In this document: one piece after another, positions 1-16,122 of the stretch
How positions within the stretch are numbered: position 1 is the first letter of the stretch
Layout: each line of letters begins with the position of its first letter
Origin: Patescibacteria group bacterium
GTDB lineage: Bacteria > Patescibacteriota > Minisyncoccia > Phycocordibacterales > UBA9973
Assembly: GCA_040389365.1 (NCBI GenBank)
Contig: JAZKAB010000007.1
Coordinates: 14,084 to 62,286, forward strand
DNA length: 48,203 bases
Direction: 5' to 3'
Notes under the pieces: generated by a model
What the model saw: the letters and a program-made list of their open reading frames with translations, nothing else
Database searches by the model: none
What the model was told of the DNA's origin: nothing
Translations under genes and position numbers: made by a program

Positions 1-2
1 CA

Positions 3-1091
3 ACCAGACAGGCAGAACTTGCAACGCACTTCAACGAAGCGGTCGGCTCATTCTTTGACGCAATGCTTAACCAGCTCTTCTCTCGCGGCCTTTCAAGCAT
101 TAAAGGCACGGCTAACAGCGCAGATATCGGCCTGAGCACTGGAGGTCCTGGTACGAACGCGGTGCTGGGAACAAACGGCCAGTTTCTTGCAGGGGTTAAT
201 GATAACGTAGGGTCAATCAATGACATTGCCGCCGCGGGAGCAACAATCGATATTAGTCGACCTCAGCTCATTCGCGGCGTACTGAAGAAGCAGTATGACT
301 ATCTGAGCAAGACCAGCGACAATCGAGCCATTATCGACCGCATCTTGCCTGAAATCGCGCAGCTCGACTACTGTTTGCCTGGACCAAATCCAAGCTGGAA
401 AAACGGTCTCGACAAGAATTTTCAGACTTTCTTAAGCACTGTATTTCCAATCCAGATAGCATTTAGCAACCATATCTCGTTTAATAAGGGCGCTAACAAT
501 GCAGTATTGGATGACAAGACAAATGGCGGCTCAATCCGACTGTTCCCGTCGGATGCGGACGAGACAACGCCAATCACTATCACTCTTCAAAATACCAATA
601 TCGGATTCAAGGTGCGCCAATATCTCCTCGATACCTATAACGACATGATTAAAGAGCTAGATCAGAAGTTTAGCCGTCAGGCTATCGGCGACGCTTTTGC
701 CTCGACAAAAAGCACCGTATTGGAGCAAGACTATGCCCGCGGCATGGCAACGGACAGCTATGACGAGGTTTCAAACCTTCCGGGCCTTGCAATCAGCGTT
801 GTAGCGGCAGACGAAGACTATGACAGCAAGATTGCCACGTCCAAGCAAGACATTCAGGATCTTGAGGCTATCCATCGCCAGGCTTCTGCTATTGTTGCAA
901 AAGCAAAGGCTCGCTACATTGCAGAGCAAAGAGCAGCTGGCACTCCCGTTAACCAGCAATGTATCGATGCTGCGTATTCAATAGACACGTCTCCGATCAT
1001 TCCGATCGCACGCAACGAATCAGATACCCCGAGCCCGCTTATTCAGCGCATGCTTGATGCTAATCGCTATTTCTATAGCTTAACCGAATAA
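3..1091 (+). CDS. hypothetical protein, 5'-truncated by the window edge; first visible gene of the T4SS-like locus
   Basis: The frame is open from nt 3, with no stop before the track ATG at 63. It ends at TAA 1089-1091 and lies 4 nt from the next same-strand ORF. No recognisable motif. Confidence 0.55.
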   Translation, partial: TRQAELATHFNEAVGSFFDAMLNQLFSRGLSSIKGTANSADIGLSTGGPGTNAVLGTNGQFLAGVNDNVGSINDIAAAGATIDISRPQLIRGVLKKQYDYLSKTSDNRAIIDRILPEIAQLDYCLPGPNPSWKNGLDKNFQTFLSTVFPIQIAFSNHISFNKGANNAVLDDKTNGGSIRLFPSDADETTPITITLQNTNIGFKVRQYLLDTYNDMIKELDQKFSRQAIGDAFASTKSTVLEQDYARGMATDSYDEVSNLPGLAISVVAADEDYDSKIATSKQDIQDLEAIHRQASAIVAKAKARYIAEQRAAGTPVNQQCIDAAYSIDTSPIIPIARNESDTPSPLIQRMLDANRYFYSLTE

Positions 1092-1095
1092 TAAT

Positions 1096-1953
1096 ATGCC
1101 TAAACGAATTATCACAATCATTCTTATACTGCTCGCTGTCTTTGCCCTCTTGCTCGGAGGCATATGGCTTGTTGGACGACGCCAGGCGACAAAAGAAGGC
1201 AAAGCGCCTGCAACATTCAGGGAATTCTTGGGGCTAAGCACAAAAAAAGACCCTGCGACCAATGCTGACGGTACTACTACTTCAGTCTTTACCAATCCGA
1301 ACGATACCACCACCGGCACATTGGATGATATCGGCATTGGCAATGGCGGTGAACTTGGCACGAGCAATTTCGGAAACGACAGCATTATTCCGGCCAGCGA
1401 ATTCACGCAGACTAGCGAATTTACCGGTGCAGGCACTTCTCCAATCGAGCCTACGTCCTTTGGCAGCAATGGTTCTTTTGGCACAGCAGGGAATATTAGC
1501 AGCGCGGGGAATACCAATAACGATCCTCTAAATCCTGGAACGCCTTCTTCTGTCGATGGCACAACAACTGCGCCAAACGGTGCCGTATTGCCAAGCTGCT
1601 CTGCCGCAGACATCAATATTGCCTTTACCGACACGGAACTAGCCGAACTCAAGCGCCTGCAGAGCCGCTATAACGCTATTGCAAGCCGATTGGCGGGTAC
1701 AGAAACGATCGCCAACGAGGCCGCGCTGTATGATGACTATGCATTAGAGGAAAATCGCGTCATTGAGATGCAGAATTTTTGCCAATCAACCGCTCCGCTT
1801 ATCGCTGACGCCACAATGCAGCGCCGCGTACCGACTCCGTTTTGGAACAATGGCACGGCAGGTTCAGGCGGGTACACTGCGCCTGTTGGAAAAAGCCCTA
1901 ACCCTTTGATAAACAACATTCTTGAACAGCTGTTGCGCATTAATTTGTGGTAA
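1096..1953 (+). CDS. membrane-anchored protein with a Thr/Gly/Asn-rich linker, function unknown (T4SS-like locus)
   Basis: N-terminal hydrophobic helix (IITIILILLAVFALLLGGIWLV), then a low-complexity T/G/N/S-rich region and a structured C-terminal part. Tightly packed with its neighbours. Confidence 0.6.
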   Translation: MPKRIITIILILLAVFALLLGGIWLVGRRQATKEGKAPATFREFLGLSTKKDPATNADGTTTSVFTNPNDTTTGTLDDIGIGNGGELGTSNFGNDSIIPASEFTQTSEFTGAGTSPIEPTSFGSNGSFGTAGNISSAGNTNNDPLNPGTPSSVDGTTTAPNGAVLPSCSAADINIAFTDTELAELKRLQSRYNAIASRLAGTETIANEAALYDDYALEENRVIEMQNFCQSTAPLIADATMQRRVPTPFWNNGTAGSGGYTAPVGKSPNPLINNILEQLLRINLW

Positions 1954-1977
1954 AACACCTACGCTCCGTGATACAAT

Positions 1978-4900
1978 ATGCACGTGTCTGCACGCCTCTT
2001 TCGTAGTATACGATCTACAATTGTTAGTTTTAATAAAACGCTTTTTTTAACGGCAGGAGTATTTCTTGCTGTTCTTTTTTTGCATGTTCCAATCGTTCAT
2101 GCCGAGCTTACTCCAGAGCAAAAAGTCTTGGAGAAAAACAGGCTTGATTCAAAGTATGCTGAGTCATTTAATAATTTTCAAGCAGGCAGCGGCCTAACAA
2201 GCGGCACGGTATTAAAGGCAGGATCGGACAATGCTTCATCTGGACTTGTGTTCAAGGTGAAATTGAACGTTGACCCCTCCAAGGACCTAAAAGGAAGCGA
2301 TACAATAAAAAACCCAGCATGGAGGGCAGTTAGTTCGACTCCAAGAGGAGGCCAACTTCCCCTGCACAGCATGTTCATTCTCTTGTGCGAGAAGAACAAC
2401 GCAGCTCGTTGCTGGATTTCAGAAGTTCCCGTTAAGGTAGAGCTTGTACCTGCAGAAAAAAATACAATCTTTGTAAACTCAGAGCAGGGCAACACAATTC
2501 CTACGCAGGAAGTTGCAATTGAAACATTTAAAACTGACGACAATCAATACAATCTGTACAGCTACGACTCAATTAAGCAGGAATTTATTGGAAGCATTGC
2601 CAGTCTTAAGCTGCTAAACGGAACAACGCTTACTGCATCTCTCTGGTATCAAGGGGTGTTTGGTGCGTCGGAAGAATACACGAAGGCTGGAATAGTTACC
2701 GACAATCCTTTGCGGGTTAACTTTGGTGGAGGCCAAACAAGAACAAGCTATTTCCGAATCGGCGCTCCTATAGAAATAAAAACTCCTGCTGACGCAGCGC
2801 AGCAAGCCCAACAGGCCGCTGACTCAGCTGCAGCGCTAGCAAATGACCCCGTCAGAGCAGGTGCCGGAGATGACAATCTTCCTGTATGTATTTTTGCCCA
2901 CCCTATTAGCGGTGAGGGCAGCATCATGGGCTGTGTCGCCCAGGTTGCATACGGACTGTATAGTCTTACCGCTTGGGTTGCAGGAATCTTCGGCAATCTC
3001 TTTGATTTCTTTATTGGATACTCAGTTAGCGATACGTCATACCGTTATACGTTTGCAGTAACTGGATGGAAGCTGGTACGAGATATTTCAAACATCTTTT
3101 TCATCATCATTATGGTCTGGACGGGCTTTACAGCGGTACTGCAAGCTTCAACAGCAACCATGCGAAAGGTTGTTCCCAGCCTTATTGTTAACGCGTTCTT
3201 GATCAACTTTAGCCTCTTTGCAACAAGAGTGGTTATCGATATTTCCAATATCACCGCGCGCATGTTCTATAGCCAGATGATTGTCTGCGACAAGGTTAAT
3301 ATTGACGCCAATGGCAAGTGTCCTGCAGCACAGGCGAAACGAGGAGCGGGAGGGTATTGGCCGCTGTCTGAAAAAATTGTATCTTCATTCAACCCGCAGA
3401 TAATTTTTAATTCGAATATTCTTAAGCTGCCTAACTATGACGACAGCTCCTCAGGAAGTTCTGCCTTAAATGGCGGCTTGAAAGGCGGGAGGGTACAAAC
3501 AACATCTGACAGCGACTACGCGACATACTTTATGGTTGTGTGTATTATTGCCGCAATTATTATGGGAGGCATTACGCTCATGTTCTTCAAAGTTGCGTTT
3601 TTGTTCCTTGGCCGCGTTGTCGGTCTGTATGTCTGCATGATCTTTGCGCCATTCGCATTCTTGAGCCGAGGTATACCATTTTTTGATTCAATGAAAAAAC
3701 TTAAGTTTAAGGACTGGTGGGGAGAGCTGGTGAACTACTCGCTGCTTGCACCAATCTTCACCTTTTTCCTGTATATCATTTATGGATTTCTTTCATCGAA
3801 TTTCGTCGCGGAAATTGGCTTCGTAGACACTAAGGGTGACTTTTTCGGGACCATTCTTTCGGTGGTGATTCCAATGCTTATCATCTTCTCATTGCTTGAA
3901 ATTGCCCAGAAGACTGCTGAGAAATATGCAGGGGAGATGGGGGAGAAGGTGCAAAAATTAGGAACGCAGGCTACAGGACTCGCAATTGGAGCTGCTAGCG
4001 GGGGTGCAGCGCTACTAGGAGGAAGAGTAATTGGTGGGCTTGCTAAACGCGTTGACGAGTCTCGAGTTGGTATCGGCATTAGAAATATGGCTGCTAAAAG
4101 CGGGGTTGCGGGTTGGGCTGGAAGAAATCTGCAGAAAGGCGTAAACGCGACCAGGTCTGGATCATTTGATCTTCGACAAACTGGGGCTGGTAAAAAAGTC
4201 TTGGGCAAGCTTGGTATTGACGCTGACCAAAAGGCACTTAATACTTTTGCGGGTGTTGGACTAGGGTTAGGAACAGACCAGAGAAAGGGCGGATATGAGT
4301 CAGACGTGAAGAGAAGACAGGAACGATTGGTGGCGAATGAAAAGCTTCTTGAAGAAAAGGCCGGTGAGGAAATCAAAGCTTATAACGAAAAAGCAAAGGT
4401 TAAGTACGATAAGAAGGTAAACGAGGCTCTTGAAGCGGGAATGCTCTTAAGCCATAGTGCAGCTGATATAGCAGCAGCTAAGAGCAATGCAGACCAGACT
4501 CTTTATAATAGTTACAGAGACGAGGCAAGTAGAAATGCGACAGTACAAGCTAATATTAATGCAGTGACTAAGCCTGTTCCTGTAGCATCTGCAGATGAAT
4601 TAACAAGCACTCGACGAAAGACCTATACTGAGGGACTCAAGAAAGGCGGCGTGATTACAAGACTACAGGAAGCAGCTATAAGGCAAGGGGAGAAAGGAGG
4701 TGTGCTTAACAGCGCATTGGGAGCATCTGCAGAACTTCTAGGGGCTACCGTAGGAGCAGCGCTTGGCAGCCAGGTTCGTACAGAGGGCAGTAGAAAAGCA
4801 GGGAAAAAGCTCGAGGAGAAATCAAAGATTGATAAGGAGCTTCAAACTATTGAAGAGACGCTTGAAAAAGGATTTAAAAATCTTATATCCCTTGAAACAT

Positions 4901-5232
4901 ACGGCAAAGAATTTGATAAGTTATCGGATCCAGAAAAAGCATCTGTAGGCGCTCGACAGTCCGCAATTAATTCTGATAAGGAAATTAAGAAACAGTGGGA
5001 GCAAAGGGTTCAGGCTGTGGAAGAAAGCAAATATAACACTAAGGATTTAAAATCAAGAGCATCTGCGTTAAGAAAAACTATGATTGCTACAGGGTCACAA
5101 GCAGATGTAAATGCATACTTTGATGCAATCGCTCAAGTAGAAGCTGCAACAAAGCATGAAAAAATATGGAGAGATGTTTCAAAGTTTAGAGAAGACCAAA
5201 AGAAAAAACTAAAGGGCGAGGAGTCAAAATAA
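1978..5232 (+). CDS. large polytopic membrane protein, VirB6/TrbL-like candidate with a long Lys/Glu-rich C-terminal tail
   Basis: 1084-aa ORF. It has a signal or anchor helix, an ectodomain of about 300 aa, many hydrophobic helices across roughly aa 310-660, a Gly-rich segment, and a K/E-rich coiled-coil-like tail. It sits just upstream of the PrgI-like and VirB4 genes. The start could be GTG 1984, since TGaTACAAT at 1969-1977 abuts ATG 1978. Confidence 0.55.
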   Translation: MHVSARLFRSIRSTIVSFNKTLFLTAGVFLAVLFLHVPIVHAELTPEQKVLEKNRLDSKYAESFNNFQAGSGLTSGTVLKAGSDNASSGLVFKVKLNVDPSKDLKGSDTIKNPAWRAVSSTPRGGQLPLHSMFILLCEKNNAARCWISEVPVKVELVPAEKNTIFVNSEQGNTIPTQEVAIETFKTDDNQYNLYSYDSIKQEFIGSIASLKLLNGTTLTASLWYQGVFGASEEYTKAGIVTDNPLRVNFGGGQTRTSYFRIGAPIEIKTPADAAQQAQQAADSAAALANDPVRAGAGDDNLPVCIFAHPISGEGSIMGCVAQVAYGLYSLTAWVAGIFGNLFDFFIGYSVSDTSYRYTFAVTGWKLVRDISNIFFIIIMVWTGFTAVLQASTATMRKVVPSLIVNAFLINFSLFATRVVIDISNITARMFYSQMIVCDKVNIDANGKCPAAQAKRGAGGYWPLSEKIVSSFNPQIIFNSNILKLPNYDDSSSGSSALNGGLKGGRVQTTSDSDYATYFMVVCIIAAIIMGGITLMFFKVAFLFLGRVVGLYVCMIFAPFAFLSRGIPFFDSMKKLKFKDWWGELVNYSLLAPIFTFFLYIIYGFLSSNFVAEIGFVDTKGDFFGTILSVVIPMLIIFSLLEIAQKTAEKYAGEMGEKVQKLGTQATGLAIGAASGGAALLGGRVIGGLAKRVDESRVGIGIRNMAAKSGVAGWAGRNLQKGVNATRSGSFDLRQTGAGKKVLGKLGIDADQKALNTFAGVGLGLGTDQRKGGYESDVKRRQERLVANEKLLEEKAGEEIKAYNEKAKVKYDKKVNEALEAGMLLSHSAADIAAAKSNADQTLYNSYRDEASRNATVQANINAVTKPVPVASADELTSTRRKTYTEGLKKGGVITRLQEAAIRQGEKGGVLNSALGASAELLGATVGAALGSQVRTEGSRKAGKKLEEKSKIDKELQTIEETLEKGFKNLISLETYGKEFDKLSDPEKASVGARQSAINSDKEIKKQWEQRVQAVEESKYNTKDLKSRASALRKTMIATGSQADVNAYFDAIAQVEAATKHEKIWRDVSKFREDQKKKLKGEESK

Positions 5233-5233
5233 T

Positions 5234-5746
5234 ATGAATGATGATTTAATTAACAACCTAGAAGAGAATATTGAAGAGCTTCCGGAAGAGGCGCGGGGGT
5301 TTATCTTTGGCGATGGGTTAAAAAATGCTGAAGCGGAGATATTCAAAAATATAGATCTAGCGGAAGAAAAGCTGAAAATATCAAATATGATTAAGTTTTA
5401 TCTATTAGATATAAAATCCCTACAAGACCTCAGTGATCTTATTCTTTCCTTAACCATTAACAAGGAGAAGAAAGTTGCTGTGGCAAAAATGATAAAAGAA
5501 GATATTATTGACGAGCTTATACTGCTCAGCGAAGTTCATGAGGAGATCGATAGGGAAGCAGGTTCTGTTACAGCTACAATTTCCCCTAACAGCCTCGCAT
5601 CTCTTTCCGACCGTCTCAAACAAGCGTCAATTGCCACCCCTCTAAAGCGCGACTACAGCCTCAATACTGAAAAAACTGCAGCTCCTGCACATGAAACTCC
5701 CTCTCGCGCTATTGACCCATACCACGAATCAATAGACAATGAGTAG
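5234..5746 (+). CDS. acidic hypothetical protein (T4SS-like locus)
   Basis: 170-aa ORF starting 2 nt after the previous stop, with GAGGAG upstream. Rich in Glu/Asp/Leu/Ile, no TM segment, no recognisable motif. Confidence 0.6.
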   Translation: MNDDLINNLEENIEELPEEARGFIFGDGLKNAEAEIFKNIDLAEEKLKISNMIKFYLLDIKSLQDLSDLILSLTINKEKKVAVAKMIKEDIIDELILLSEVHEEIDREAGSVTATISPNSLASLSDRLKQASIATPLKRDYSLNTEKTAAPAHETPSRAIDPYHESIDNE

Positions 5747-5748
5747 AC

Positions 5749-6141
5749 ATGCAGTTCAAGGTTCCACAATTCATTGATATCGAAGACAAGGTCTTCGGCC
5801 CGCTTACCTTCAAGCAGTTCGCATACCTTGCTGGGGGAGCGGGTTTTGGCTATCTCGCATTCAAGCTGCTTCCGACATTTCTCGCAATTGTCATTGGCCC
5901 TGCCATTATCATCTTTGCGCTCGCGCTCGCATTCTTCAAGTACAATGAAAAGCCGTTCATTCACATGGTTGAATCGTTCATTCGCTATTATAGCCGCTCT
6001 CGCTTATACCTATGGCATAAGCAGAATCCTGCAGAACTGCCAAAGCGGTCGCCGCTCGCATCTCCTGACCGTGCTACACTTACCGAGAGCAGGCTTAAGA
6101 CCCTTTCATGGAGTCTTGACGTCATTGACCCTAAAAAATAA
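5749..6141 (+). CDS. PrgI-family (VirB3-like) small membrane protein
   Basis: The N-terminus MQFKVPQFIDIEDKVFGPLTFKQFAYL is followed by two hydrophobic helices, which is the hallmark layout of PrgI-family proteins. It lies immediately upstream of VirB4. Confidence 0.8.
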   Translation: MQFKVPQFIDIEDKVFGPLTFKQFAYLAGGAGFGYLAFKLLPTFLAIVIGPAIIIFALALAFFKYNEKPFIHMVESFIRYYSRSRLYLWHKQNPAELPKRSPLASPDRATLTESRLKTLSWSLDVIDPKK

Positions 6142-6143
6142 CT

Positions 6144-6779
6144 ATGGCTACAATCGGCACACCCGCACAACAATTCGTTCCGGTACAGGAAGTCCGCGAT
6201 GGCATCGTGGTAATGAAAGACGGCACATTATGTACCGTTGTGCTTGTTTCCTCTATCAACCTGAGCCTGAAGTCATACGACGAGCAGCGCGCAGTATTGG
6301 AGCAGTTTCAAAACTTCCTTAATACCATTGATTTCCCGGTACAGATTGTCGTACAGTCACGACGCTATGACGTGCGCCCATACCTGCTAACCCTTGAAAA
6401 CCGCCTGAAGGAGCAGACAGAACAGCTATTGCAAGTGCAGACGAGAGAATATATCCAGTTTATCCAGACCTTTACTGACCAGGTTAATGTCATGCGCAAG
6501 TCATTCTTTGTCGTTATTCCGTATATTCCGCCTGTTATCTCGCAAAAGAAAGGCATTGGGAAATTTCTTTCTTTCCTTAGTCCTAACGGCAATACGGGAG
6601 ATAGCTCGATCAGCGACTTTGAGGAAGAGCGCTCGCAGCTCGAGCAGCGCGTAAGCGTTGTTGACCAAGGATTGTCTCGAGTTGGATTGCGACTGATACA
6701 GCTCGGCACGCAAGAGGTGATTGAAGTGCTGTACAAGACATTCAACCCCGGCGAAAGCACCAGTCAGGCTAACGGATAG
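6144..6779 (+). CDS. VirB4 N-terminal-domain-like protein (separate ORF)
   Basis: The motif QQFVPVQEVRDGIVVMKDGTLCTVVLVSSINLSLKSYDEQRAVLEQFQNFLNTIDFPVQIVVQSRR resembles the N-terminal region of Gram-positive VirB4/TrsE-type ATPases. It is in the same frame as the next ORF, separated from it by two TAG codons. Confidence 0.5.
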   Translation: MATIGTPAQQFVPVQEVRDGIVVMKDGTLCTVVLVSSINLSLKSYDEQRAVLEQFQNFLNTIDFPVQIVVQSRRYDVRPYLLTLENRLKEQTEQLLQVQTREYIQFIQTFTDQVNVMRKSFFVVIPYIPPVISQKKGIGKFLSFLSPNGNTGDSSISDFEEERSQLEQRVSVVDQGLSRVGLRLIQLGTQEVIEVLYKTFNPGESTSQANG

Positions 6780-6806
6780 CAATACTAGTGTATACTATAT
6801 CCATAC

Positions 6807-8636
6807 ATGGCACTGTTTGGCTCAACCTCTAACAAATCATTAAACAGCAAAGACAGCCTTTTGCCGATTTCATCGTCAGAAGTGCACGAATGGGAGACGA
6901 TGGAGCTGGCCGACAAGATCGCGCCGTCTGCAATTGAAATCACCCCTAAGTCTATGCGTATCGGCGACAAGATCGTTCGCACCTTTTTCGTTATTTCATA
7001 CCCTCGATATTTGAGCGACAACTGGCTTACCCCGATCATCAACCTTGATAAGATTTTTGACATTGCCATATATATCAACCCGATTGAAACGTCAGAGCTC
7101 TTGAAGCATTTCCAGAAGAAGATCGCTGAAGTTGAAAGCCAGATCATGGTGCGCCAGCAGAAAGGGCTCGTGCGTGACCCGATGCTTGATACTGCCCGCG
7201 AAGACTTGGAAGAGCTGCGCAATGACCTTACCCAGGCTCAGGAAAAGATGTTTGATGTCGGCATGTATATTACCGTCTATGCCGATACTGACACTGACCT
7301 CTTTCGCGTTGAGAGCGAGATCAAGTCATTGCTTGAATCAAAGCTTATTTACATAAAGCCAACACTTTTCCAAGAAGAAGACGGGTTCAAGACCGTTGCG
7401 CCACTGGGCACTGACAAGCTGCAGGTTACGCAAAAGCTCAATTCAGAGCCTATTTCCAGCATGTTTCCCTTTGTTTCATTCGACCTTACCAGCGAAACGG
7501 GTATCTTGTATGGCGTGAACCGCCATAACTCTAGCCTTGTTATCTTTGACCGCTTTAGCCTTGAAAACTATAATTCAATTATCTTTGCCAAGTCTGGTGC
7601 CGGAAAGAGCTACGCAACAAAGCTTGAAATCATCCGTACGCTGATGTTTGATACCGATGTTATCGTTATCGACCCGGAACGGGAATACGAATACCTCGCA
7701 GAGGCAATCGGCGGGCGTTATTTTAATATCTCACTCTCTTCAGACCACCATATCAACCCCTTTGACCTGCCGATTCCTCGCGAAGACGAATCGTCTGGCG
7801 ACGTATTGCGCAGCAATATCATCAATCTCGTTGGACTGTTCCGCATTATGCTTGGAGGCCTGACTCCTGAAGAAGATTCAGTCATTGACCGCGCGATTAC
7901 CGAAACCTATTCGCTGAAAGACATTTCTGCAGATTCAGACTTCTCAACTATCGAGCCTCCGCTATTGTCGGACTTTGAAATGGTATTGTCAGGCATGGAG
8001 GGGACAGACTCAATCCTGCAGCGCTTGACCAAGTATACCCACGGCTCATGGGCAAGCTTTATCAATCAGCCAACGAATGTTGATATCAACAAGAAGTTTG
8101 TTGTCTTTTCAGTGCGGGATATGGAAGACGACCTCAAGCCTGCAGCGATGTATATCGTGACGCACTTTATCTGGAATGCAGTTCGAAAGGAGCTGAAGAA
8201 GCGACTATTGGTTGTTGACGAGGCATGGTGGATGATGAAGTCAGACGATACCGCCTCTTTCCTCTATTCTATTGCCAAAAGAGGGCGCAAATACTATCTT
8301 GGCCTTTGCACTATCACCCAAGACGTTGGAGACTTTATGAAAAGCCCATACGGCGTACCTATTATTACTAACTCTTCTATCCAGCTCTTGCTGAAGCAGT
8401 CTCCATCAACTATGGATGTCTTGCAAAAGACCTTTAACCTGACAGACGAAGAAAAATACCTGCTCTTGGAATCAGGCGTTGGGGAAGGGATCTTCTTTGC
8501 CGGACTAAAGCACGTAGCAATCAAGATCATTGCCTCATACACTGAAGACCAGATTATCACCTCTGACCCGTCACAAGTTATCTCAATCAAGAAGGCGAAG
8601 CAGGAGCTTGCCGAAGGCCAGTCACAAAACGGCTAG
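6807..8636 (+). CDS. virB4: VirB4-family type IV secretion ATPase
   Basis: Walker A FAKSGAGKSYATK and Walker B RLLVVDEAWWMM. The IAPSAIEI...IGDKIVRTFFVISYPRYLSDNWL segment is typical of VirB4/TrsE-like proteins. Confidence 0.85.
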   Translation: MALFGSTSNKSLNSKDSLLPISSSEVHEWETMELADKIAPSAIEITPKSMRIGDKIVRTFFVISYPRYLSDNWLTPIINLDKIFDIAIYINPIETSELLKHFQKKIAEVESQIMVRQQKGLVRDPMLDTAREDLEELRNDLTQAQEKMFDVGMYITVYADTDTDLFRVESEIKSLLESKLIYIKPTLFQEEDGFKTVAPLGTDKLQVTQKLNSEPISSMFPFVSFDLTSETGILYGVNRHNSSLVIFDRFSLENYNSIIFAKSGAGKSYATKLEIIRTLMFDTDVIVIDPEREYEYLAEAIGGRYFNISLSSDHHINPFDLPIPREDESSGDVLRSNIINLVGLFRIMLGGLTPEEDSVIDRAITETYSLKDISADSDFSTIEPPLLSDFEMVLSGMEGTDSILQRLTKYTHGSWASFINQPTNVDINKKFVVFSVRDMEDDLKPAAMYIVTHFIWNAVRKELKKRLLVVDEAWWMMKSDDTASFLYSIAKRGRKYYLGLCTITQDVGDFMKSPYGVPIITNSSIQLLLKQSPSTMDVLQKTFNLTDEEKYLLLESGVGEGIFFAGLKHVAIKIIASYTEDQIITSDPSQVISIKKAKQELAEGQSQNG

Positions 8637-8659
8637 CGTGCTGTATACTGTGTATACAA

Positions 8660-9619
8660 ATGAAACGATCATTTTTCATATTAATTAGCGTGCTATTGCT
8701 GGCTATGGGCACGTATTCTGCTGCATATGCGCAGCTTGCCACTGCCGACCTGAGCATTGCGACAATTCCGCTTGAGCCGCAACCCTTGCAGACAGTGCAA
8801 GTTAGATTGCAAAGCTTCGGCTTCAGTCTTGATCAAGCCACCATTGTATGGAAATACAACGGCGCAACGATTGCTTCAGGCACCGGCAGAACGAGCATTT
8901 CAGTGACAGCGCCTGCCAATGGCAAGGTTGCGACATTGACCGCTACTGCGACCAGTACGGACTTTGACGAAAGCGTTGTCTCTTTGGTATTGCGTCCCGC
9001 AAGCATTGACGTGCTGTGGGAAGGGGCAGATAGCTATACTCCCGCCTTTTACAAGGGAAGGGCATTGCCTTCTAATAACGGCATTATTCGCATTACCGCC
9101 ATCCCTTCAATTACCGCGCCGCGAGAACTGTCATATACATGGTCAAAGAATGACTCTGTCGTGCAGGGCAGCTCTGGCTACGCCAAATCAAGCATGCTGT
9201 TTAAGAACGAAACGCTTGATACCGTCGAAAATATCTCAGTATCTGCCACGAGCGCTTCTTTTTCAGGAACAGGCAGTACCAGCATAGTGCCACGAACGCC
9301 TAATTTCATAGGGTATTTCAACAATGAAGGGTATATCGACTATGCCAACGGCTCAGCAACTGCTCTTACTACCACTGCTTCTGGAAGCATTATTCGCTTT
9401 GAGCCCTATTTCTTCTCAACGCCATACAGCATTGACCACGACTTAACGTTTGACTATAGCGACAATGACGGCAATGCTGTCGAGAAGAGCGGCATCCTTA
9501 ATGAAATTCGCTTGTCACGACCGGAAGAAGGAGGGGAGTCTCAGCTCACGCTGATAATTCACACTGTTTTATATAGTTTGCAAAACATTACCAAGAAGTT
9601 TTCAGTGAATTTCATATAG
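8660..9619 (+). CDS. secreted hypothetical protein (T4SS-like locus)
   Basis: Signal peptide MKRSFFILISVLLLAMGTYSAAYA followed by Ser/Thr-rich, beta-type sequence. No known motif. Confidence 0.6.
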   Translation: MKRSFFILISVLLLAMGTYSAAYAQLATADLSIATIPLEPQPLQTVQVRLQSFGFSLDQATIVWKYNGATIASGTGRTSISVTAPANGKVATLTATATSTDFDESVVSLVLRPASIDVLWEGADSYTPAFYKGRALPSNNGIIRITAIPSITAPRELSYTWSKNDSVVQGSSGYAKSSMLFKNETLDTVENISVSATSASFSGTGSTSIVPRTPNFIGYFNNEGYIDYANGSATALTTTASGSIIRFEPYFFSTPYSIDHDLTFDYSDNDGNAVEKSGILNEIRLSRPEEGGESQLTLIIHTVLYSLQNITKKFSVNFI

Positions 9620-9640
9620 CATTCGTGATACACTAGTTGT

Positions 9641-10144
9641 ATGAAAAAACTGTTATGGCTTAGTATAGTTTTAAGCCTACTCATTACTACTCGCACGTTT
9701 GCGATAACAGGAACACTGAAAGCAACATACGATGCATCTCTTTCTCGATTTAATGCTACGCTCTCTGGCGTAAAGGGGAGCCCAAGCAATTTTAAAATAT
9801 ATATTCTTGATAAAGAATTTCCAGGCGGAACAGAACCAAACGATGTCGTTAAGAGCAATGCTATTTTAAATGATGGCACTGTTAAAAAGCCAGATGCTGT
9901 AGGTACGATTACCTGGGCACTAAATACTTCAGCGGCTTTGAAATTCGATCATGCATACTACATTAGAGCGGTCGAGGTTGGGTATAACGGCAGAGAATCA
10001 TATGCGTCTGCTGCAGTGAAGGTAACTACCCCTGCAGCTGCTAAAGCTGCAGCTGCAGGAAAGGTAGCGTTGCAGCCTCTAGTGCTTACAGCAAAAGGCA
10101 CAGTTGTTACAGGAACATTAAGCGATGTTCCAATGAATGCTTAG
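9641..10144 (+). CDS. signal-peptide protein with Ig/FN3-like repeat modules; N-terminal portion of a frame interrupted by TAG 10142-10144
   Basis: Signal peptide MKKLLWLSIVLSLLITTRTFA. The module motif YYIRAVE...VKVTT recurs downstream of the TAG in the same frame. Confidence 0.6.
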   Translation: MKKLLWLSIVLSLLITTRTFAITGTLKATYDASLSRFNATLSGVKGSPSNFKIYILDKEFPGGTEPNDVVKSNAILNDGTVKKPDAVGTITWALNTSAALKFDHAYYIRAVEVGYNGRESYASAAVKVTTPAAAKAAAAGKVALQPLVLTAKGTVVTGTLSDVPMNA

Positions 10145-10582
10145 TACAAGCTTATTTCTCAAAAAACAGCATTTAGCAGCAGTCAATATGCCGGCAGCGA
10201 CAGCGCACTGAGCGCAGGAGTAGTCTCTCCTACAGCAGGACCTGTAAACTTAGCGAGCGGTACTGCCTCAGTCGGATCAGTCTCTTTTAACGAATCAAAT
10301 TATCTGCAGAACACAAAATACTATATACGCGCCATAGAGATTCCTGCAGATATAACGATTAAGCCATTTTATATTAGCGACACTGTTACAGTAACAACGG
10401 CGGAGGATACTATTGCCCTTGTTCCGCTAACAACCAAGAAGGATGGCGACAGTATTATTGTTTCTGGAAAAATTGATACGTCAAAACTTACCTCAACATT
10501 TATACCGGAGGACTATACGGTAACGCTTAGCGCATCAAAGACGCCTCCGAAGACTGGGACTAATGATCTTGCGACAGTAGAT

Positions 10583-11719
10583 GTGGGACCGTTACCAAGC
10601 GCGAAGACGGAAAAAGGAGATGTTCCCGGCATTAATGCAGATGGCACATACTACTGGAAACTCTCAAGCCTTTCTCCAAGTACTGTGTACTATTATCAGC
10701 AATCAGCTACGGTAAAAGGCAACAAGGTGCCAGTGAAGGGGAGCGTTGCAAACTTTAACAGCAATGTCGGAACAACAATCGTACCGGGCAGTGCGGAAGA
10801 AAAGGCAGACTTGAACAAGCGAAGCTATACGCTGCTTTCTGGCTTTCCAAACTTTAGCGTCTTGCCTGACCCTGACTTGTGCGCGCAGCAGCGCGCAGCA
10901 GGGGAGAATCCGCGGTTCTGCGACATGAATGACGTTATCAACTACTTTATGAAGCTGCTTATCGGCCTCTGTGCCGTATCGCTTGTGTTCAGAATCATGT
11001 ATGAAGGATTCGTATACATGACGAGCGACATGCCATTCAAAGTTGCGAGCGCCAAGTCATCTCTGTATGCAGCCATACTGGGTCTGCTGTTGGCACTTAC
11101 CTCATATATTATTTTAAATACCATTAATCCAAAGCTTGTTGATGGAACAGTGAGCGTAGATCAGTTGGGCATCGGCGTTGAAATTGTAGGGGATGGAAGT
11201 ACATCATTTAACCTTGGTACAAAGACAAAAGGGCTTCCAACCCCAGTATACTGTCCCGGATCAGGAGGAAGAGCACAGTTATCAAAGATTGCCATGAGCT
11301 TTCAAAACAACGTTGTATACAATCAAACGCTAAGAAATAGCCTGCAGCCAAATGGAAAAGTTGCGCTAGACTGCTCATCATATGTTGCACAGGTATTAAA
11401 TTGCGCCGGATATACTATACCTGGCGTATCTACCAGCAATACAAATACTGCGTCTATATTTGGAGGTTCAGGTGCTGAGAAAATAAGCACTATCTCTTCT
11501 GCTAATGGCGTTGTTACCGTGAATAACAAGGTGCTGCAAGTAGGTGACCTATTGGGGTGGACAGGATCAAAAGGGCATGTGGTTATGTATATTGGAGGAG
11601 GTCAAATAATTGAAGTACATGGCCCAAAAGGCTCAATTACTAATGCGAAAGTCTGGCCAAGTATAGACTGGTACCAAAAGAATTATGGATTTAAGTCTGT
11701 GTATCGAATTCCAAATTAA
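10583..11719 (+). CDS. T4SS-pilin-like two-helix domain fused to an NlpC/P60-type cell-wall hydrolase; the true 5' end is unresolved
   Basis: Pilin-like segment: YTLLSGFP...LLIGLCAVSLVFRIMYEGFVYMTSDMPFKVASAKSSLYAAILGLLLALTSYIILNTINPKLV. Hydrolase motifs: LDCSSYV (Cys), GHVVMYIG and EVHG (His). The frame is open back to 10145, and the GTG at 10583 is only the first possible start. Confidence 0.65.
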   Translation: MGPLPSAKTEKGDVPGINADGTYYWKLSSLSPSTVYYYQQSATVKGNKVPVKGSVANFNSNVGTTIVPGSAEEKADLNKRSYTLLSGFPNFSVLPDPDLCAQQRAAGENPRFCDMNDVINYFMKLLIGLCAVSLVFRIMYEGFVYMTSDMPFKVASAKSSLYAAILGLLLALTSYIILNTINPKLVDGTVSVDQLGIGVEIVGDGSTSFNLGTKTKGLPTPVYCPGSGGRAQLSKIAMSFQNNVVYNQTLRNSLQPNGKVALDCSSYVAQVLNCAGYTIPGVSTSNTNTASIFGGSGAEKISTISSANGVVTVNNKVLQVGDLLGWTGSKGHVVMYIGGGQIIEVHGPKGSITNAKVWPSIDWYQKNYGFKSVYRIPN

Positions 11720-11748
11720 AACATAGTGTTTTATAGTACAATACATAC

Positions 11749-12990
11749 ATGCGACGCATTCTCATTATAATTTTCGTACTTATTCTCGTCGGAACAGGGG
11801 TATGGTATTTCTATATTCGCCCTATGCAAAATGGCGCAGCAACCGTACCTTCACTATTGCAGCCCTTCTTCCCAAGCGTGACAACAAACCCAAACGGGTC
11901 ATTTGGAGAAGAAGATACTTCTCTTAACGGCCCGACGCCGGTGGCGACAGCGGCTGTGCTTAAGCAATTAACTGCTCGTCCTATTGCAGGCTTTACAATC
12001 TTCAGCACCTCAAAAACTATTTCTATTCCTGCCGCAGATCCAAAAGAGAAGCCGACAATAACGACGGTTGTTGATCATTTCGTACGGTATGTGTCTCGCG
12101 CGAACGGCTATGTGTATGAGATAAAGAATGCTGAAATTCCATTGCAGATCAGCAATATTTTTATTCCAAACGTGTACGAGGCGTATTTTGCTGATAGCAA
12201 CAATACTGCACTATTGCGCTTTCTGCGCGCAAACAGCCAGACCATTGCTACATATAGCATTCCTATCCCTCCCTTAAACATTGATGGTACCCGCACGCAA
12301 AAATCGGGCGTGTATCTTCCTGACAATATTTCTGCCCTGGCAGTATCTGCAGACCAGAAGCAGGTTGCCCGCATTACCCATGACAAGAATGGCGCGATTG
12401 TAACAACGTCTAACAGTGCAGGCACCGGCAGCAGGGTAGTGGCGCGATCGCCATTCCAGCAATGGCTCGTGCAGTGGAATACGAAGAATATCTTTTTGCA
12501 AACCAAGGCAGCAGCGACAGCTGACGGTTTCCTATACAGCATAGATGCTGCTTCAGCGCGATTAAGGCGCGTAACGGGCATGATAAAAGGAATGACCGCA
12601 TCAGTCAGCCCTCTTGGCACATATGTATTGTATTCAGAAAGCACTGCTACAGGCTTCACTACGACGCTTTTTAATACTAAGACCAATGCAACGAATCAAA
12701 TCAACCTTTCGATACTGCCTGAAAAATGCACATGGCTTAAGAATGAAGACCTTATCTGCGCAGGAAACAGCAGCGTTGCAGACGCTGTATATCCAGACAA
12801 CTGGTATGCCGGCATTACGCACTTTTCTGACAAGCTCTATCATATCAATGCAGCAACAAATACCTACGAGCTTGTATATAACGGCGAAAGCCAGTCATTT
12901 GACATGACTGGCTTGATGGCTGATGAAGATCAGAAGCTTGTATTCTTTATTGATAAGACCACAGGGTTGCTGTGGTCTTACAAGTACTAG
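11749..12990 (+). CDS. N-terminally anchored extracytoplasmic hypothetical protein (last gene of the T4SS-like locus)
   Basis: TM helix ILIIIFVLILVGTGVWYFYI followed by about 380 aa of beta-rich sequence. TACAAT lies 6 nt upstream of the ATG. Confidence 0.6.
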   Translation: MRRILIIIFVLILVGTGVWYFYIRPMQNGAATVPSLLQPFFPSVTTNPNGSFGEEDTSLNGPTPVATAAVLKQLTARPIAGFTIFSTSKTISIPAADPKEKPTITTVVDHFVRYVSRANGYVYEIKNAEIPLQISNIFIPNVYEAYFADSNNTALLRFLRANSQTIATYSIPIPPLNIDGTRTQKSGVYLPDNISALAVSADQKQVARITHDKNGAIVTTSNSAGTGSRVVARSPFQQWLVQWNTKNIFLQTKAAATADGFLYSIDAASARLRRVTGMIKGMTASVSPLGTYVLYSESTATGFTTTLFNTKTNATNQINLSILPEKCTWLKNEDLICAGNSSVADAVYPDNWYAGITHFSDKLYHINAATNTYELVYNGESQSFDMTGLMADEDQKLVFFIDKTTGLLWSYKY

Positions 12991-13725
12991 CTATTTAACT
13001 ACAGTTGCAGTTACAACCTGTCTGTCGCGCACCGTTCGTCGAAGGTATAGCTCCTGTAGGATAGAGAAGAGGTTAGCAACAGTCCAATACAGTGCAACGG
13101 CTGAAGCCAATCGGCTTGCAATCACGATAATAATTATTGGAAGGATATACTTTGTTTGCAATGCCAATGACTTTGCAAACTGGGTCTGCAGGTTATTGTC
13201 TCCTGAACGGCCCGGGGCAGTAGGCTGAGGGGCGAGAAACGCTTGGATGCCCTGCGTTACGCCTGCAAGGATAGCGAGTACCAAATAAGGCTTAGTAATG
13301 TCTATAAAGCCCAAGAACATGCTCTTAAGATTGTCTGTGGTGAGGAAGCCATACAAGTGACCAGGCTGGCTAATGCCGTGAGAGAAAGAGAAATACAATG
13401 CAAAGAGAATAGGAAGCTGAATTATAAGATACAAGCAGCCCGAAAAAGGATTGATTTTCTCAGTCTTATACAGCTCGAATGTTAATTTCGCCTCTTCTTC
13501 CTTTGAAAGACCTTGGTCTTTGATCGCCTGCAGCTTAGGCTCCAAGGCTTTCATTTTATATTGGCCAACTATGCTTCTCTTGCTGAGAGGGAAGAGCGCT
13601 AGGCGAATGATGATTGTCACCAATACCACCGCCAATCCAACATCCTGACCAGTTATGTGCTGGGCGATAAAGATAAGCGCGTTATAAATTGGGTTATAAA
13701 TAAGTACATTCCAAAGGTAAATCAT
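12991..13725 (-). CDS. yidC: membrane protein insertase YidC (short form)
   Basis: VLVTIIIRLALFPLSKRS...KMKALEPKLQAIK and multiple TM helices. Sits in the conserved rpmH-rnpA-yidD-yidC arrangement. Confidence 0.9.
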   Translation of the reverse strand: MIYLWNVLIYNPIYNALIFIAQHITGQDVGLAVVLVTIIIRLALFPLSKRSIVGQYKMKALEPKLQAIKDQGLSKEEEAKLTFELYKTEKINPFSGCLYLIIQLPILFALYFSFSHGISQPGHLYGFLTTDNLKSMFLGFIDITKPYLVLAILAGVTQGIQAFLAPQPTAPGRSGDNNLQTQFAKSLALQTKYILPIIIIVIASRLASAVALYWTVANLFSILQELYLRRTVRDRQVVTATVVK

Positions 13726-13743
13726 GGGGATATTGTACCCTAT

Positions 13744-14281: not shown

Positions 14282-14284
14282 ACA

Positions 14285-14422
14285 CTAGACAGTTGTAAGG
14301 TTTGCGCGACCCTTGCGGCGTCGGGCTAGCAACACTTTTCGGCCAGTAGCACTTGCACTGCGGACTAGAAATCCGTGTGTAGTTGCTCGCTTTCGCTTTT
14401 TTGGTTGATATGTTTGAGACAT
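14285..14422 (-). CDS. rpmH: 50S ribosomal protein L34
   Basis: Manual translation of the minus strand gives [45 protein letters not shown]. It is below the ORF-track length cutoff. Confidence 0.9.
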
Positions 14423-14490
14423 AGAGTAGGCGTACTATACACAAATAGTTTATATTAATCAAGTATTCTTTTTTATATCCCTTTTCTGAT

Positions 14491-14551
14491 ATAATCCCCC
14501 TAATCCACAGCTTTTCCACCCTGATGTACACATGTTTAATTGTGTGGAAAA
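14491..14551. promoter_or_regulatory. DnaA-box cluster upstream of dnaA
   Basis: TAATCCACA at 14501-14509, TTTTCCACC at 14512-14520, and TGTGGAAAA at 14543-14551 (reverse complement TTTTCCACA). The flank upstream is AT-rich. Confidence 0.6.
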
Positions 14552-14567
14552 CCTGTATGATAAAGCA

Positions 14568-15935
14568 ATGGAAAGCAACCTCTCTCAACTTTGGAATACT
14601 TGCCTAAGCGTGATCGAATCACAGCTTAGTAAGGCTACTTTCAGCACATGGTTTAAGAATACAGGCATTGCCAGAGAAGAGGAGGGTATCATTTACATCA
14701 GCGTTCCCAATGAATTCGTTAGGGAGTGGCTCATGACCAAGTTTCACAAGATCATTCTCAAGAGCATTGTCGACAATGCTCCTCATGTTCGCGCTATCGA
14801 GTTCGTTATTAGCAGCCTGCCGCAAACTCCAGCCGCTCCTGCGCCTGCCCAGTCTCTCTTTACACAGCCCACAGACCAGCCTTCAAGCAATAGCAATTCT
14901 CTAAACATACTTATCAACCGAGATGATAATCTCAACCCCCGCTATACGTTCGAAAACTTCGTTGTAGGGCCTTTTAATGAGCTTGCCTATGCAGCTGCCC
15001 AGGCAATAGTAAAACGCCCCCAGCACGCGTATAACCCTTTATTCATCTATGGCAACAGCGGGCTAGGGAAGACACACCTTATCCAGGCAATCGGCAATGA
15101 GATAAAGCGCACCTCTCCTGAAAAGAGGGTGCTGTATACAAGTCTTGAAAAATTCATGAATGAATATGTGTCTTCTGTGCAAAACAATCGCCAGCAGGCA
15201 TTTCAAGACAAGTACAGAAAGTTCGATGTATTGATCATGGATGATATTCAGTTTATTTCTGGCAAAGAGGGCACGCAGCATGCGCTATTCCATATTTTCA
15301 ATACGCTGCATGACTTAAACAAGAACATTATCTTTTCTTCTGATAAGCACCCTAATCATATTATTGGCCTTGAAGACCGTCTCAAGACCCGCTTCAATGC
15401 CGGCATGACTATCGACGTGCAGGAACCAGACCTTGAGTCTCGACTGGCAATTATCAAGGAAAAGACTGCTGTTATTGAATTTCCTATAGAGCCTGAAGTT
15501 ATTTCCTATATCGCTACAGCGGTAACCGGCAGCATTCGAGAGCTTGAGGGCGTATTAAACCTTATTGCAATGCACTCTGGTGTGCGCCAGAAGGCTATTA
15601 GCTTGGCTGAGATAAAATTGCTTATAAAGAATAGCATTCGGCCAAAGCGCGTTATTTCAATTGATTCTGTCGTTAAGATGGTTTCTGACTACTACAACCT
15701 CGACGAGCAGGTTATATATGAAAAGACTCGGCGCAAAGAGATCGTACGAGCACGCCAGATCATCATGTTCGTATTGCGAGAAGACTTTAACGAGTCATAT
15801 CCCTCTATCGGCGCAAAGCTCGGAGGGAAAGACCACACGACAGTCATTCACTCCTACGAGAAGATCAAGGGAGAGCTCACTACCGACCCACACCTGATGA
15901 AGGAGCTTGAAGATATCCGCATTCTGTTTAAATAA
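14568..15935 (+). CDS. dnaA: chromosomal replication initiator DnaA
   Basis: AAA+ Walker A GNSGLGKTHL, Walker B VLIMDDIQF, and C-terminal DNA-binding region GGKDHTTVIHSYEKI. The start was set at ATG 14568 (TATGAT lies 6 nt upstream); the track start is 14532. Confidence 0.95.
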   Translation: MESNLSQLWNTCLSVIESQLSKATFSTWFKNTGIAREEEGIIYISVPNEFVREWLMTKFHKIILKSIVDNAPHVRAIEFVISSLPQTPAAPAPAQSLFTQPTDQPSSNSNSLNILINRDDNLNPRYTFENFVVGPFNELAYAAAQAIVKRPQHAYNPLFIYGNSGLGKTHLIQAIGNEIKRTSPEKRVLYTSLEKFMNEYVSSVQNNRQQAFQDKYRKFDVLIMDDIQFISGKEGTQHALFHIFNTLHDLNKNIIFSSDKHPNHIIGLEDRLKTRFNAGMTIDVQEPDLESRLAIIKEKTAVIEFPIEPEVISYIATAVTGSIRELEGVLNLIAMHSGVRQKAISLAEIKLLIKNSIRPKRVISIDSVVKMVSDYYNLDEQVIYEKTRRKEIVRARQIIMFVLREDFNESYPSIGAKLGGKDHTTVIHSYEKIKGELTTDPHLMKELEDIRILFK

Positions 15936-16122
15936 TTGTGGAAAACTAAAGGATAGCGTTATGAAAACTTTTAATAAAAAACTGAATAGTAAAAAAGCTG
16001 CATCTTCGGGAAACATAATCCACAGACGCCTTTCAAAAAATAAATTACTTCTAAAGGATTTATCAGACTTATCCACAATCCACACCCTATATAGGACGTA
16101 TTAAGAAAAAATAAAAATAATT
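15936..16122. other. oriC candidate (dnaA-dnaN spacer) with DnaA boxes and an AT-rich stretch
   Basis: TGTGGAAAA at 15937-15945, TAATCCACA at 16016-16024, perfect TTATCCACA at 16069-16077, and CAATCCACA at 16076-16084. AT-rich run at 16100-16122. Confidence 0.7.

Follow-up and report, generated by a model that had tools for sequence, protein, structure and literature searches.

The first 12,990 nt of a 48,203 nt stretch from a Patescibacteria group bacterium (GenBank assembly GCA_040389365.1, contig JAZKAB010000007.1, positions 14,084 to 62,286; the whole stretch is called the window below) carry a gene cluster which we identify, with a probability of about 85%, as the chromosomal type IV secretion system (T4SS) of the Patescibacteria, or candidate phyla radiation (CPR), in its vertically inherited Nomurabacteria/Paceibacteria arrangement. 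At the same level of confidence we regard the locus as a descendant of monoderm conjugation machinery (MPF-FATA) that has lost its DNA-processing module. As for its task, we lean, with modest confidence, towards host interaction and away from conjugation. The locus type, its position at the side of dnaA and its likely non-conjugative role have already been published between 2023 and 2025, and as the published Patescibacteria T4SS matches all main features of the present locus, the finding is already known. An original prediction made from the letters of the window had read the region as a T4SS-like machine, and the hidden Markov model (HMM) assignments of VirB4, TrsD, PrgI and a pilin-like hairpin with its hydrolase support that reading.

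Identification of the T4SS core

The VirB4 ATPase exceeds the equivalog cutoff of the NCBIfam model for the CD1110-family VirB4 (NF045971; E=2.3e-114, 383 bits, cutoff 325). It also matches the Pfam families P-loop_TraG (E=1.4e-25) and AAA_10, and both the Walker A motif SGAGKSY and the Walker B motif LLVVDEAWW can be read in its translation. The TrsD-like protein, encoded by a separate open reading frame (ORF), matches the N-terminal region of the NCBIfam family VirB4_plasma with residues 106-233 (E=2.9e-12), TrsD (1.3e-7) and, with residues 2-114, the CD1110 family (E=8.9e-6), and its orthologues carry the Pfam TraC-like domain PF26593. The small PrgI/VirB3-like protein scores 46 bits against PF12666 (E=6.8e-12), above the gathering cutoff of 27. 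Both TrsD and PrgI/VirB3 adjoin virB4. Hence the ATPase, the stand-alone VirB4-N-like ORF before it and the PrgI/VirB3-like protein were all named correctly in the original prediction, and the profile searches likewise uphold the pilin-like hairpin (by way of its orthologues) and the hydrolase described below.

At least 8000 relatives of this VirB4 exist in the databases. The top 120 are 88-100% identical to it, and the named ones among them all belong to Paceibacterota, Nomurabacteria or Minisyncoccia. The closest plasmid VirB4s are CD1110-family proteins of Firmicutes and Actinobacteria and are only 28-36% identical. Judged by identity, the protein may well fall in the Patescibacteria clade, the named relatives being CPR and the plasmid homologues from outside the CPR being at most 36% identical. 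Weak NCBIfam matches to the ATPases of the Ced import system were also seen (CedB 2.3e-8, CedD 2e-4). These are confined to the common ATPase core and score far below the CD1110 match.

Organisation and extent of the locus

All T4SS ORFs called in positions 1-12990 lie on the + strand and are tightly packed. Nine genes are complete, one of these being interrupted by a stop codon, and one is truncated. The junction gaps are 4, 24, 1, 2, 2, 27, 23, 21 and 29 nt, with an apparent exception of 438 nt (10144 to 10583). Since the ORFs 9641-10144 and 10583-11719 share a frame and are split by a single TAG, this gap is coding. The eleven co-directional ORFs with gaps of 1-30 nt that had been counted earlier are thus tightly packed as stated, apart from this junction, where two of them are one broken gene. 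The G+C content of the locus (0.43-0.50) is similar to that of the remainder of the window. A promoter and terminator scan of 1-14600 found terminators at chance level and a small excess of promoters, and is hence uninformative on operon structure. The last T4SS gene (+, stop ending at 12990) and yidC (-, stop starting at 12991) converge with zero intergenic bases, which leaves no room for a terminator; in one close relative (locus L088) the two genes overlap by 4 nt.

The first ORF of the window aligns at 63% identity with residues 384-743 of an L088 protein that is 743 aa long. As only this part is present, the locus must extend beyond the edge of the window. Exact-sequence look-ups with two proteins of the window gave no match that would extend the contig upstream, and we deduced what lies there from relatives with 94-99% VirB4 identity. 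These have two further conserved genes without a family assignment, then ksgA and uvrD, which puts the start of the locus some 2 kb upstream of nt 1. Missing from the window are the N-terminal half of the ~745-aa protein and one ~300-aa gene.

A fixed chromosomal site

A scan of one genome per species gave 80 related loci, all from CPR metagenome-assembled genomes, to which metagenome contigs of closer relatives were added, and every protein of the window was compared by tblastn with the first 86 loci. On contigs of sufficient length these 86 show the same order: ksgA (+), genes of ~300 and ~750 aa, (the 285-aa gene), the polytopic protein, (the acidic protein), PrgI, TrsD and VirB4, followed by a protein with three immunoglobulin (Ig)-like domains, the pilin-hydrolase gene, a beta-propeller protein, yidC (-), yidD (-), rnpA (-), dnaA (+), dnaN (+) and a penicillin-binding protein (PBP) gene (-). 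Local rearrangements are rare (L018, L021, L032, L076). TrsD was found in 86/86 loci and PrgI in 82/86; dnaA was detected in 61/86 and ksgA in 34/86, most of the others being contigs that are too short. In the relatives uvrD lies upstream of ksgA.

An ordinary integrative and conjugative element (ICE), or a decaying remnant of one, might have come to lie near the origin by chance. VirB4, TrsD, PrgI and the polytopic protein do belong to families otherwise found on monoderm ICEs and plasmids, and one gene has a premature stop. The site itself argues against such an element, as the locus lies between ksgA and yidC/dnaA in about 80 species and the insertion site does not vary. Nor was any integrase, relaxase or type IV coupling protein (T4CP) detected in the locus, in the housekeeping region with ksgA and uvrD upstream of it in the relatives, or among the large ORFs of the window. 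Further, the G+C content matches the rest of the window, the nearest VirB4s of mobile elements are at most 36% identical, and VirB4 is conserved above DnaA with a ratio of nonsynonymous to synonymous substitutions (dN/dS) of about 0.01. The same neighbours across the lineage together with the lack of these three genes show that the locus is not an ICE; this explanation is largely refuted and we give it almost no credence. The view that the locus is core chromosome and no ICE had been taken from the adjacency to yidC and dnaA in the window, and that adjacency extends over the lineage.

A constrained motor and a variable exterior

In the same genomes the median identity to the window was 77% for VirB4, 57% for TrsD, 55.5% for DnaA, 49% for DnaN, 48% for PBP, 46% for PrgI and 45.5% for YidC; the polytopic, three-Ig and propeller proteins and the large secreted ones reach about 30%. 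The loci were picked by VirB4 similarity, hence the absolute identity of VirB4 is inflated, but the ranking within genomes and the dN/dS values are still valid. Against the closest relative (L087, VirB4 99% identical) VirB4 has a dN of 0.005 and a dS of 0.53, and TrsD 0.01 and 0.38. Synonymous sites are saturated in the comparison with L088 (VirB4 96% identical), where only dN was used: 0.031 for VirB4, 0.118 for YidC, and 0.24, 0.77 and 0.89 for the transmembrane (TM) core, ectodomain and tail of the polytopic protein. Ectodomains and tails are 30-40% identical in this pair. Taken together, the identities and substitution rates show a strongly constrained motor, under very strong purifying selection, with a fast-changing exterior.

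The pilin-hydrolase gene

In the product of the gene at 9641-11719 a signal peptide is followed by Ig-like repeats that vary, by a VirB2-like hairpin of two helices with ILNTINP at its end, and by a peptidoglycan hydrolase of the NlpC/P60 family (Pfam E=1.5e-8). The window copy of the hairpin matches the Pfam family T4SS_pilin (PF18895) below the cutoff (E=1.8e-3) and the NCBIfam Mbov_0395 pilin-like family weakly (E=0.02). PF18895 is matched in 57/74 orthologues (best 9e-10), and TrbC/VirB2 (PF04956) in 5/74. The pilin-like plus NlpC/P60 module that had been recognised by eye is thereby supported, with the correction that its gene begins at 9641 and not at 10583.

This lineage has a single pilin-like module, fused to a C-terminal domain, and the hydrolase family varies between relatives. 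The part before the hairpin is 28-478 aa long across the orthologues, and 68/74 have at least 120 aa beyond the end motif. The C-terminal domain (~170-280 aa) is NlpC/P60 in 16 of the 74, VanY in 13 (plus 3 M15_4), YkuD in 5, SLT in 5, Amidase_2 in 1 and unrecognised in the remainder, so that about 40 of the 74 have a recognisable peptidoglycan hydrolase domain. In an all-against-all BLAST the C-terminal parts fell into at least 10 unrelated clusters, which are interleaved along the VirB4 identity ranking. The change is seen even between the window and L087, where the hydrolase is NlpC/P60 and VanY, respectively. In this pair PrgI, VirB4 and the flanking genes reach a nucleotide identity of about 90-93% and the hairpin (10735-11134) 82-90%, the N-terminal repeats (9556-10734) no more than 48-70%, and none is left in the C-terminal domain. 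The dS of the gene is 1.46, against 0.4-0.6 in the neighbouring genes, which points to allele replacement beyond relaxed selection alone. The interleaved clusters and the elevated dS suggest that the pilin-hydrolase gene undergoes cassette exchange.

The in-frame TAG at 10142-10144 is followed by 146 codons free of both stops and starts. In the relatives the gene is intact and single, with 671 aa in L087 and 690 aa in L088, the latter collinear over the whole length; at the codon aligned to the TAG, L087 has GTA (Val) and L088 has ACG (Thr). By this alignment the TAG may have arisen by a recent nonsense mutation or through an error in the assembly, or it may be a site of readthrough. An alternative genetic code or programmed readthrough was considered at this position and rejected, as the relatives have sense codons and all other genes end normally.

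Further, we speculate that the hairpin might polymerise in a VirB2-like manner with both termini outward, giving a T4SS filament or collar that bears host-recognition domains and wall-cutting enzymes, a "drilling" organelle of contact that is re-tooled to the host wall by cassette exchange. We think it rather unlikely that this holds in full, but if it were true the host range of a CPR epibiont would be tied to one swappable gene.

The polytopic membrane protein and other proteins of the locus

By hydropathy the 1084-aa protein has an N-terminal anchor, an ectodomain of about 300 aa, a TM bundle at ~320-640 with at least five TM segments at residues 366-640, and an A/K/G/E-rich tail of 424 aa. 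Its TM core is 69% identical between the window and L088, and its ectodomain and tail about 30%. It matches the NCBIfam CD3337/EF1877 mobilome membrane protein weakly (E=1.3e-3). In 52 orthologues, the MMCAP2_0566 conjugal transfer protein was matched in 10 (6e-9), the Mbov_0396 ICE TM protein in 5 (7e-8) and CD3337/EF1877 in 5. From these family matches and the topology we suggest that it is a polytopic T4SS membrane subunit, probably the VirB6 analogue.

AlphaFold2 gave confident models for two of the proteins that had been listed earlier without a nameable motif. The 319-aa protein after VirB4 (80-sequence alignment, mean predicted local distance difference test (pLDDT) 90.7) is modelled as an N-terminal signal or anchor helix and three sandwiches of the Ig/fibronectin type III (FnIII) kind. 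Its best Foldseek matches in the PDB are tandem FnIII/Ig fragments (E ~5e-8), a profile search against PDB sequences gave nothing significant, and the family has a conserved motif, DLLWEAxDSYxPPFYKGKALP. The last protein of the locus (121-sequence alignment, mean pLDDT 90.9) has a helix at residues 2-28, a disordered stretch at 30-68 and an all-beta part at 70-413. Foldseek matched this model to the propellers of RACK1, TolB and acylaminoacyl-peptidase (E 3e-8 to 1e-6), and the sequence profile found only TolB in the PDB (E=0.007). We had tried both proteins as candidates for a VirB8/PrgL/TcpC-like subunit, which the predicted Ig/FnIII and propeller folds reject.

The ~745-aa protein, of which the window holds the C-terminal part, has positional orthologues of 586-1184 aa in 42 loci and no Pfam or PDB-sequence match. 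The 285-aa bitopic protein has a TM helix at its N-terminus, from which a linker rich in G/T/S/N leads to a small C-terminal domain. It is fast evolving, as tblastn detects it in 14 loci only and the relatives hold a gene of 290-369 aa at the same position. The 170-aa acidic protein evolves very fast and is 36% identical to its L088 counterpart. No family match was obtained for the bitopic, acidic, ~745-aa and upstream ~300-aa proteins. Hence, among the six ORFs first described as having no nameable motif, two have gained folds, one (9641-10144) has joined the pilin-hydrolase gene, and the others are still without a match.

Table 1. Features of the T4SS locus and its downstream neighbours. Positions are those of the window.
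Feature	Position	Strand	Basis
C-terminal 362 aa of a conserved ~745-aa protein	3..1091	+	Alignment to L088
Bitopic membrane protein, 285 aa	1096..1953	+	TM residues 5-23
Polytopic membrane protein, candidate VirB6 analogue, 1084 aa	1978..5232	+	NCBIfam families, topology
Acidic soluble protein, 170 aa, net charge -16	5234..5746	+	No TM segment
PrgI/VirB3-like small membrane protein	5749..6141	+	Pfam PF12666
TrsD-like protein, stand-alone VirB4 N-terminal domain homologue	6144..6779	+	NCBIfam, Pfam in orthologues
VirB4 ATPase, MPF-FATA type (CD1110 family)	6807..8636	+	NCBIfam NF045971, Pfam P-loop_TraG, AAA_10
Three tandem Ig/FnIII-like beta-sandwich domains, 319 aa, secreted or anchored	8660..9619	+	AlphaFold2, Foldseek
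Pilin-like hairpin and NlpC/P60 gene, 692 codons, stop-interrupted	9641..11719	+	Single frame, collinear with relatives
In-frame TAG inside the pilin-hydrolase gene	10142..10144	+	Same frame on both sides
TM-anchored beta-propeller (TolB/WD40-like fold), 413 aa	11749..12990	+	AlphaFold2, Foldseek
yidC, downstream boundary of the locus	12991-13725	-	Pfam 60KD_IMP 4e-40
yidD	13744-14037	-	Pfam YidD 1.4e-18
rnpA	13949-14281	-	Pfam Ribonuclease_P 2e-7
rpmH	14285-14422	-	L34 translation
dnaA	14532-15935	+	Pfam Bac_DnaA 3e-67

The chromosomal neighbourhood

The Pfam matches and the L34 translation agree with the yidC-yidD-rnpA-rpmH and dnaA neighbourhood read earlier from the window, and dnaN follows dnaA on the + strand. 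In its longest form the yidD ORF shares 89 nt with rnpA, and as the relatives annotate yidD with 76-88 aa the true start is probably internal. Five of the 14 matches to TTATCCACA in the whole window (at most one mismatch) lie within 14501-16077. Two of these DnaA-box-like 9-mers lie at the 5' end of dnaA and three on its other side, in the spacer before dnaN, where the only perfect TTATCCACA is found at 16069. Gene content and this cluster make 14501..16077 the probable oriC region. The cumulative GC skew rises over most of the window with a minimum near 1-3 kb and none at dnaA, and hence neither supports nor refutes the position of the origin. With oriC at dnaA the + strand operon would be transcribed towards the origin, head-on to the leftward fork, in keeping with what had been claimed before.

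Between 21 and 48 kb the 10 largest ORFs, of 289-817 aa, encode housekeeping proteins (RuvB, PolA, Fpg and others), type IV pilus proteins and a DUF11 surface protein, or have no Pfam match; no T4CP, relaxase or integrase is among them. The PilB-like ATPase at 26268-28079 (-; T2SSE E=7e-115, MshEN domain) is not a VirB11, and a weak PilM-like protein lies at 46437-47675 (+); these type IV pilus genes belong to a machine distinct from the T4SS. A 772-aa protein at 29158-31476 (+) with a DUF11 repeat near its C-terminus is probably a cell-surface protein. The ORFs 28153-29046 and 41150-42184 have no Pfam match, and the same is true of a conserved 83-aa ORF after dnaN in the relatives L002-L089 (e.g. 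L002 19972-20223).

Comparison with known systems

Quinonero-Coronel et al. 2025, Microb Genom (PMC12102498) analysed 3,035 Patescibacteria genomes and found a monophyletic VirB4 clade nested in MPF-FATA, with TrsD, PrgI/VirB3, VirB6, PF18895/VirB2-like proteins and hydrolases near virB4. Relaxases were present in 103 genomes only, and T4CP homologues were mostly distant from virB4. In Paceibacteria the commonest neighbours were dnaA, dnaN, rnpA, ksgA and rpmH, which the authors read as a gene-dosage effect, and they concluded that the machinery had been recruited to a non-conjugative role, perhaps import from the host. The present locus has the same MPF-FATA VirB4 with TrsD and PrgI/VirB3 beside it, the PF18895 pilin-like protein and the hydrolase. 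It likewise lacks a relaxase at the cluster, has the same five neighbours, is chromosomal and is probably inherited vertically within the class. For the VirB6-like protein the present locus offers a candidate, the polytopic protein, with 20 member matches to NCBIfam ICE families (best 6e-9) and 0/52 in Pfam. Nothing essential differs, and the window adds one further case from the class that is represented best. In the main text of PMC12102498 we found no statement that the hairpin and the hydrolase form one polypeptide whose hydrolase family differs between relatives, that the operon points towards oriC, or that the three-Ig and beta-propeller proteins belong to the conserved gene set of the locus.

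The T4SS of Southlakia epibionticum ML1 (SEML1_0006-0019), described by Wang et al. 2023, Cell (PMC10633639), is similar in its Gram-positive-like subunits, its pilin-like genes and the lack of a recognisable relaxase or coupling protein in the cluster, and it has peptidase and lysozyme genes downstream of virB4 comparable to the present locus. Transposon sequencing showed that this Saccharibacterial T4SS, including a pilin array, is essential for epibiotic growth. S. epibionticum belongs to a different class, essentiality was shown there only, and it has several small separate pilin genes, whereas here a single hairpin lies in a multidomain protein of 545-690 aa. Both studies are summarised in a 2025 review (PMC12857230).

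Conjugative Firmicute systems of the MPF-FATA type (C. difficile CTn2 CD1110, pCF10 Prg, pCW3 Tcp) share the CD1110 VirB4, PrgI and an NlpC/P60-type hydrolase. The gene order of polytopic protein, VirB3, VirB4 and hydrolase resembles prgH-I-J-K. In contrast to those systems no relaxase, T4CP, oriT or integrase was found at the present locus, its site is fixed, its VirB4 is at most 36% identical to theirs, the VirB4 N-domain is split off as TrsD, a pilin-like module is present, and the two modelled proteins include no VirB8-like NTF2 fold.

The T4SS of Mycoplasma ICEs (NCBIfam families Mbov_0395 to Mbov_0397, MMCAP2_0565/0566) offers counterparts to several parts, namely Mbov_0395 (hairpin, E=0.02), Mbov_0396/MMCAP2_0566 (polytopic orthologues, 7e-8/6e-9) and the Mbov_0397 VirB4 family (TrsD 2.9e-12, VirB4 1.4e-77), but every match is below the family cutoff. 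Unlike the present locus, these ICEs are mobile; they carry a DDE transposase and a TraG-like T4CP.

Helicobacter ComB (DNA uptake), archaeal Ced (DNA import) and Bordetella Ptl are T4SS-derived systems without a coupling protein. The present locus resembles them in being centred on VirB4, in having no T4CP in the cluster and in the weak matches to the ATPase core of CedB and CedD. It differs in that no homology extends past the ATPase, those systems being diderm or archaeal with unrelated accessory proteins.

Possible function

In the host-interaction role that we favour, VirB4 would power the assembly of an envelope-spanning structure at the site of host contact. The hairpin-hydrolase, Ig and propeller proteins would form or decorate its extracellular part, the hairpin-hydrolase protein would open peptidoglycan, either its own or the host's, and the channel would move macromolecules between epibiont and host and not conjugate DNA. 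The same inference of host contact or exchange had been made in the original prediction, and it coincides with the published conclusion (PMC12102498; PMC10633639).

Classical conjugation is unlikely. A working conjugation or DNA-export machine could use a coupling protein and a relaxase (the latter perhaps from an unrecognised family) with genes elsewhere in the genome, and both the conjugative ancestry of the system and the VirD4-like T4CP homologues of most Patescibacteria genomes, usually far from virB4 (PMC12102498), fit with this. For the same reason the earlier description of a minimal machine without coupling protein extends to the locus and the window and not to the genome. However, relaxases occur in only 103/3,035 genomes (PMC12102498), no oriT, relaxase or T4CP was found within the 48 kb, and one would not expect a conjugation module to be the most conserved protein set of the region. 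The passage of PMC12102498 that cites PMC10633639 adds that in S. epibionticum the distant T4CP homologue is non-essential while the T4SS genes are essential. We therefore find such a machine improbable.

As the locus has no T4CP, its working analogues are the systems without one, that is ComB and Ced if it imports and Ptl if it exports in two steps. In the first case the machine would import DNA or other macromolecules from the attached host and feed a cell that cannot make nucleotides, lipids and amino acids. The lack of a T4CP and the CedB (2.3e-8) and CedD (2e-4) matches agree with uptake, the hydrolase and surface modules would suit the breaching of a partner's wall, and import is the hypothesis favoured in PMC12102498. 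Still, the sequence gives no indication of direction, and the Ced matches cover just the common ATPase core, far below CD1110. According to the account of PMC10633639 in PMC12857230, comEC-dependent DNA uptake is dispensable in S. epibionticum, so that DNA is not established as an essential cargo. We can thus only tentatively put uptake forward.

Two-step protein export or effector delivery is the other case, in which Sec-exported proteins of the locus and/or effectors would be driven through the wall or into the host. Signal peptides or anchors are present in several proteins of the locus, which are predicted to be extracellular, their fast-evolving surface parts resemble host-interface molecules, and Wang et al. 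suggested protein export as one option (PMC10633639). Against this, the locus showed no recognisable effector candidate or toxin domain, and the hydrolase is tethered by the hairpin and not free. It seems that export is just as possible as uptake, and we hold neither to be likely by itself.

Several observations weigh against our identification of the locus as a working T4SS for host interaction. The pilin label is based on PF18895, a family of putative pilins, and on 5/74 weak TrbC/VirB2 matches; as the hairpin profile found no solved pilin among the PDB sequences, "VirB2-like" stays a family-level label. For the polytopic protein, Pfam TrbL/VirB6 was matched in 0/52 orthologues, the window copy has no Pfam match of any kind, and a profile search against PDB sequences gave nothing significant and no VirB6. 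The VirB6/TrbL label of the original prediction therefore failed in Pfam and is kept indirectly, through NCBIfam matches to membrane proteins of ICE T4SSs. The search for a VirB8-like NTF2 subunit was negative; the structures predicted for it were those of the two best-conserved envelope proteins without a family, and did not include 1096-1953, 5234-5746 or the upstream genes. The premature stop falls in the sole pilin-hydrolase gene of the window, and if it is not an assembly error the system may be impaired in this organism. The search for a relaxase, oriT and T4CP, which found none, covered the 48-kb window and the upstream region of relatives, and a coupling protein or relaxase may lie elsewhere in the genome. 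Finally, the essentiality data are limited to the distant class Saccharimonadia.

What the locus means for Patescibacteria

The Patescibacteria account for a large part of bacterial diversity and apparently live attached to other microbial cells. Before their T4SS, studied in a Saccharibacterium, no such system had been shown to be essential to the survival of its carrier. The window adds a clean example from an ultra-small genome of the Nomurabacteria type and independent corroboration, with its origin-side site, no DNA-processing genes, an ATPase constrained above DnaA and a quick-changing exterior. Beyond this it provides a fuller parts list for Paceibacteria, namely the three-Ig protein, the anchored beta-propeller and two upstream secreted proteins. 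The pilin-like module and wall hydrolase as one modular and apparently exchangeable gene and the conserved head-on orientation of the operon are further additions. Also worth passing on are the exceptional degree to which VirB4 is conserved relative to DnaA and the premature stop that the pilin-hydrolase gene carries in this genome. We regard these additions not as a new kind of system but as leads for work on the contact between CPR bacteria and their hosts.

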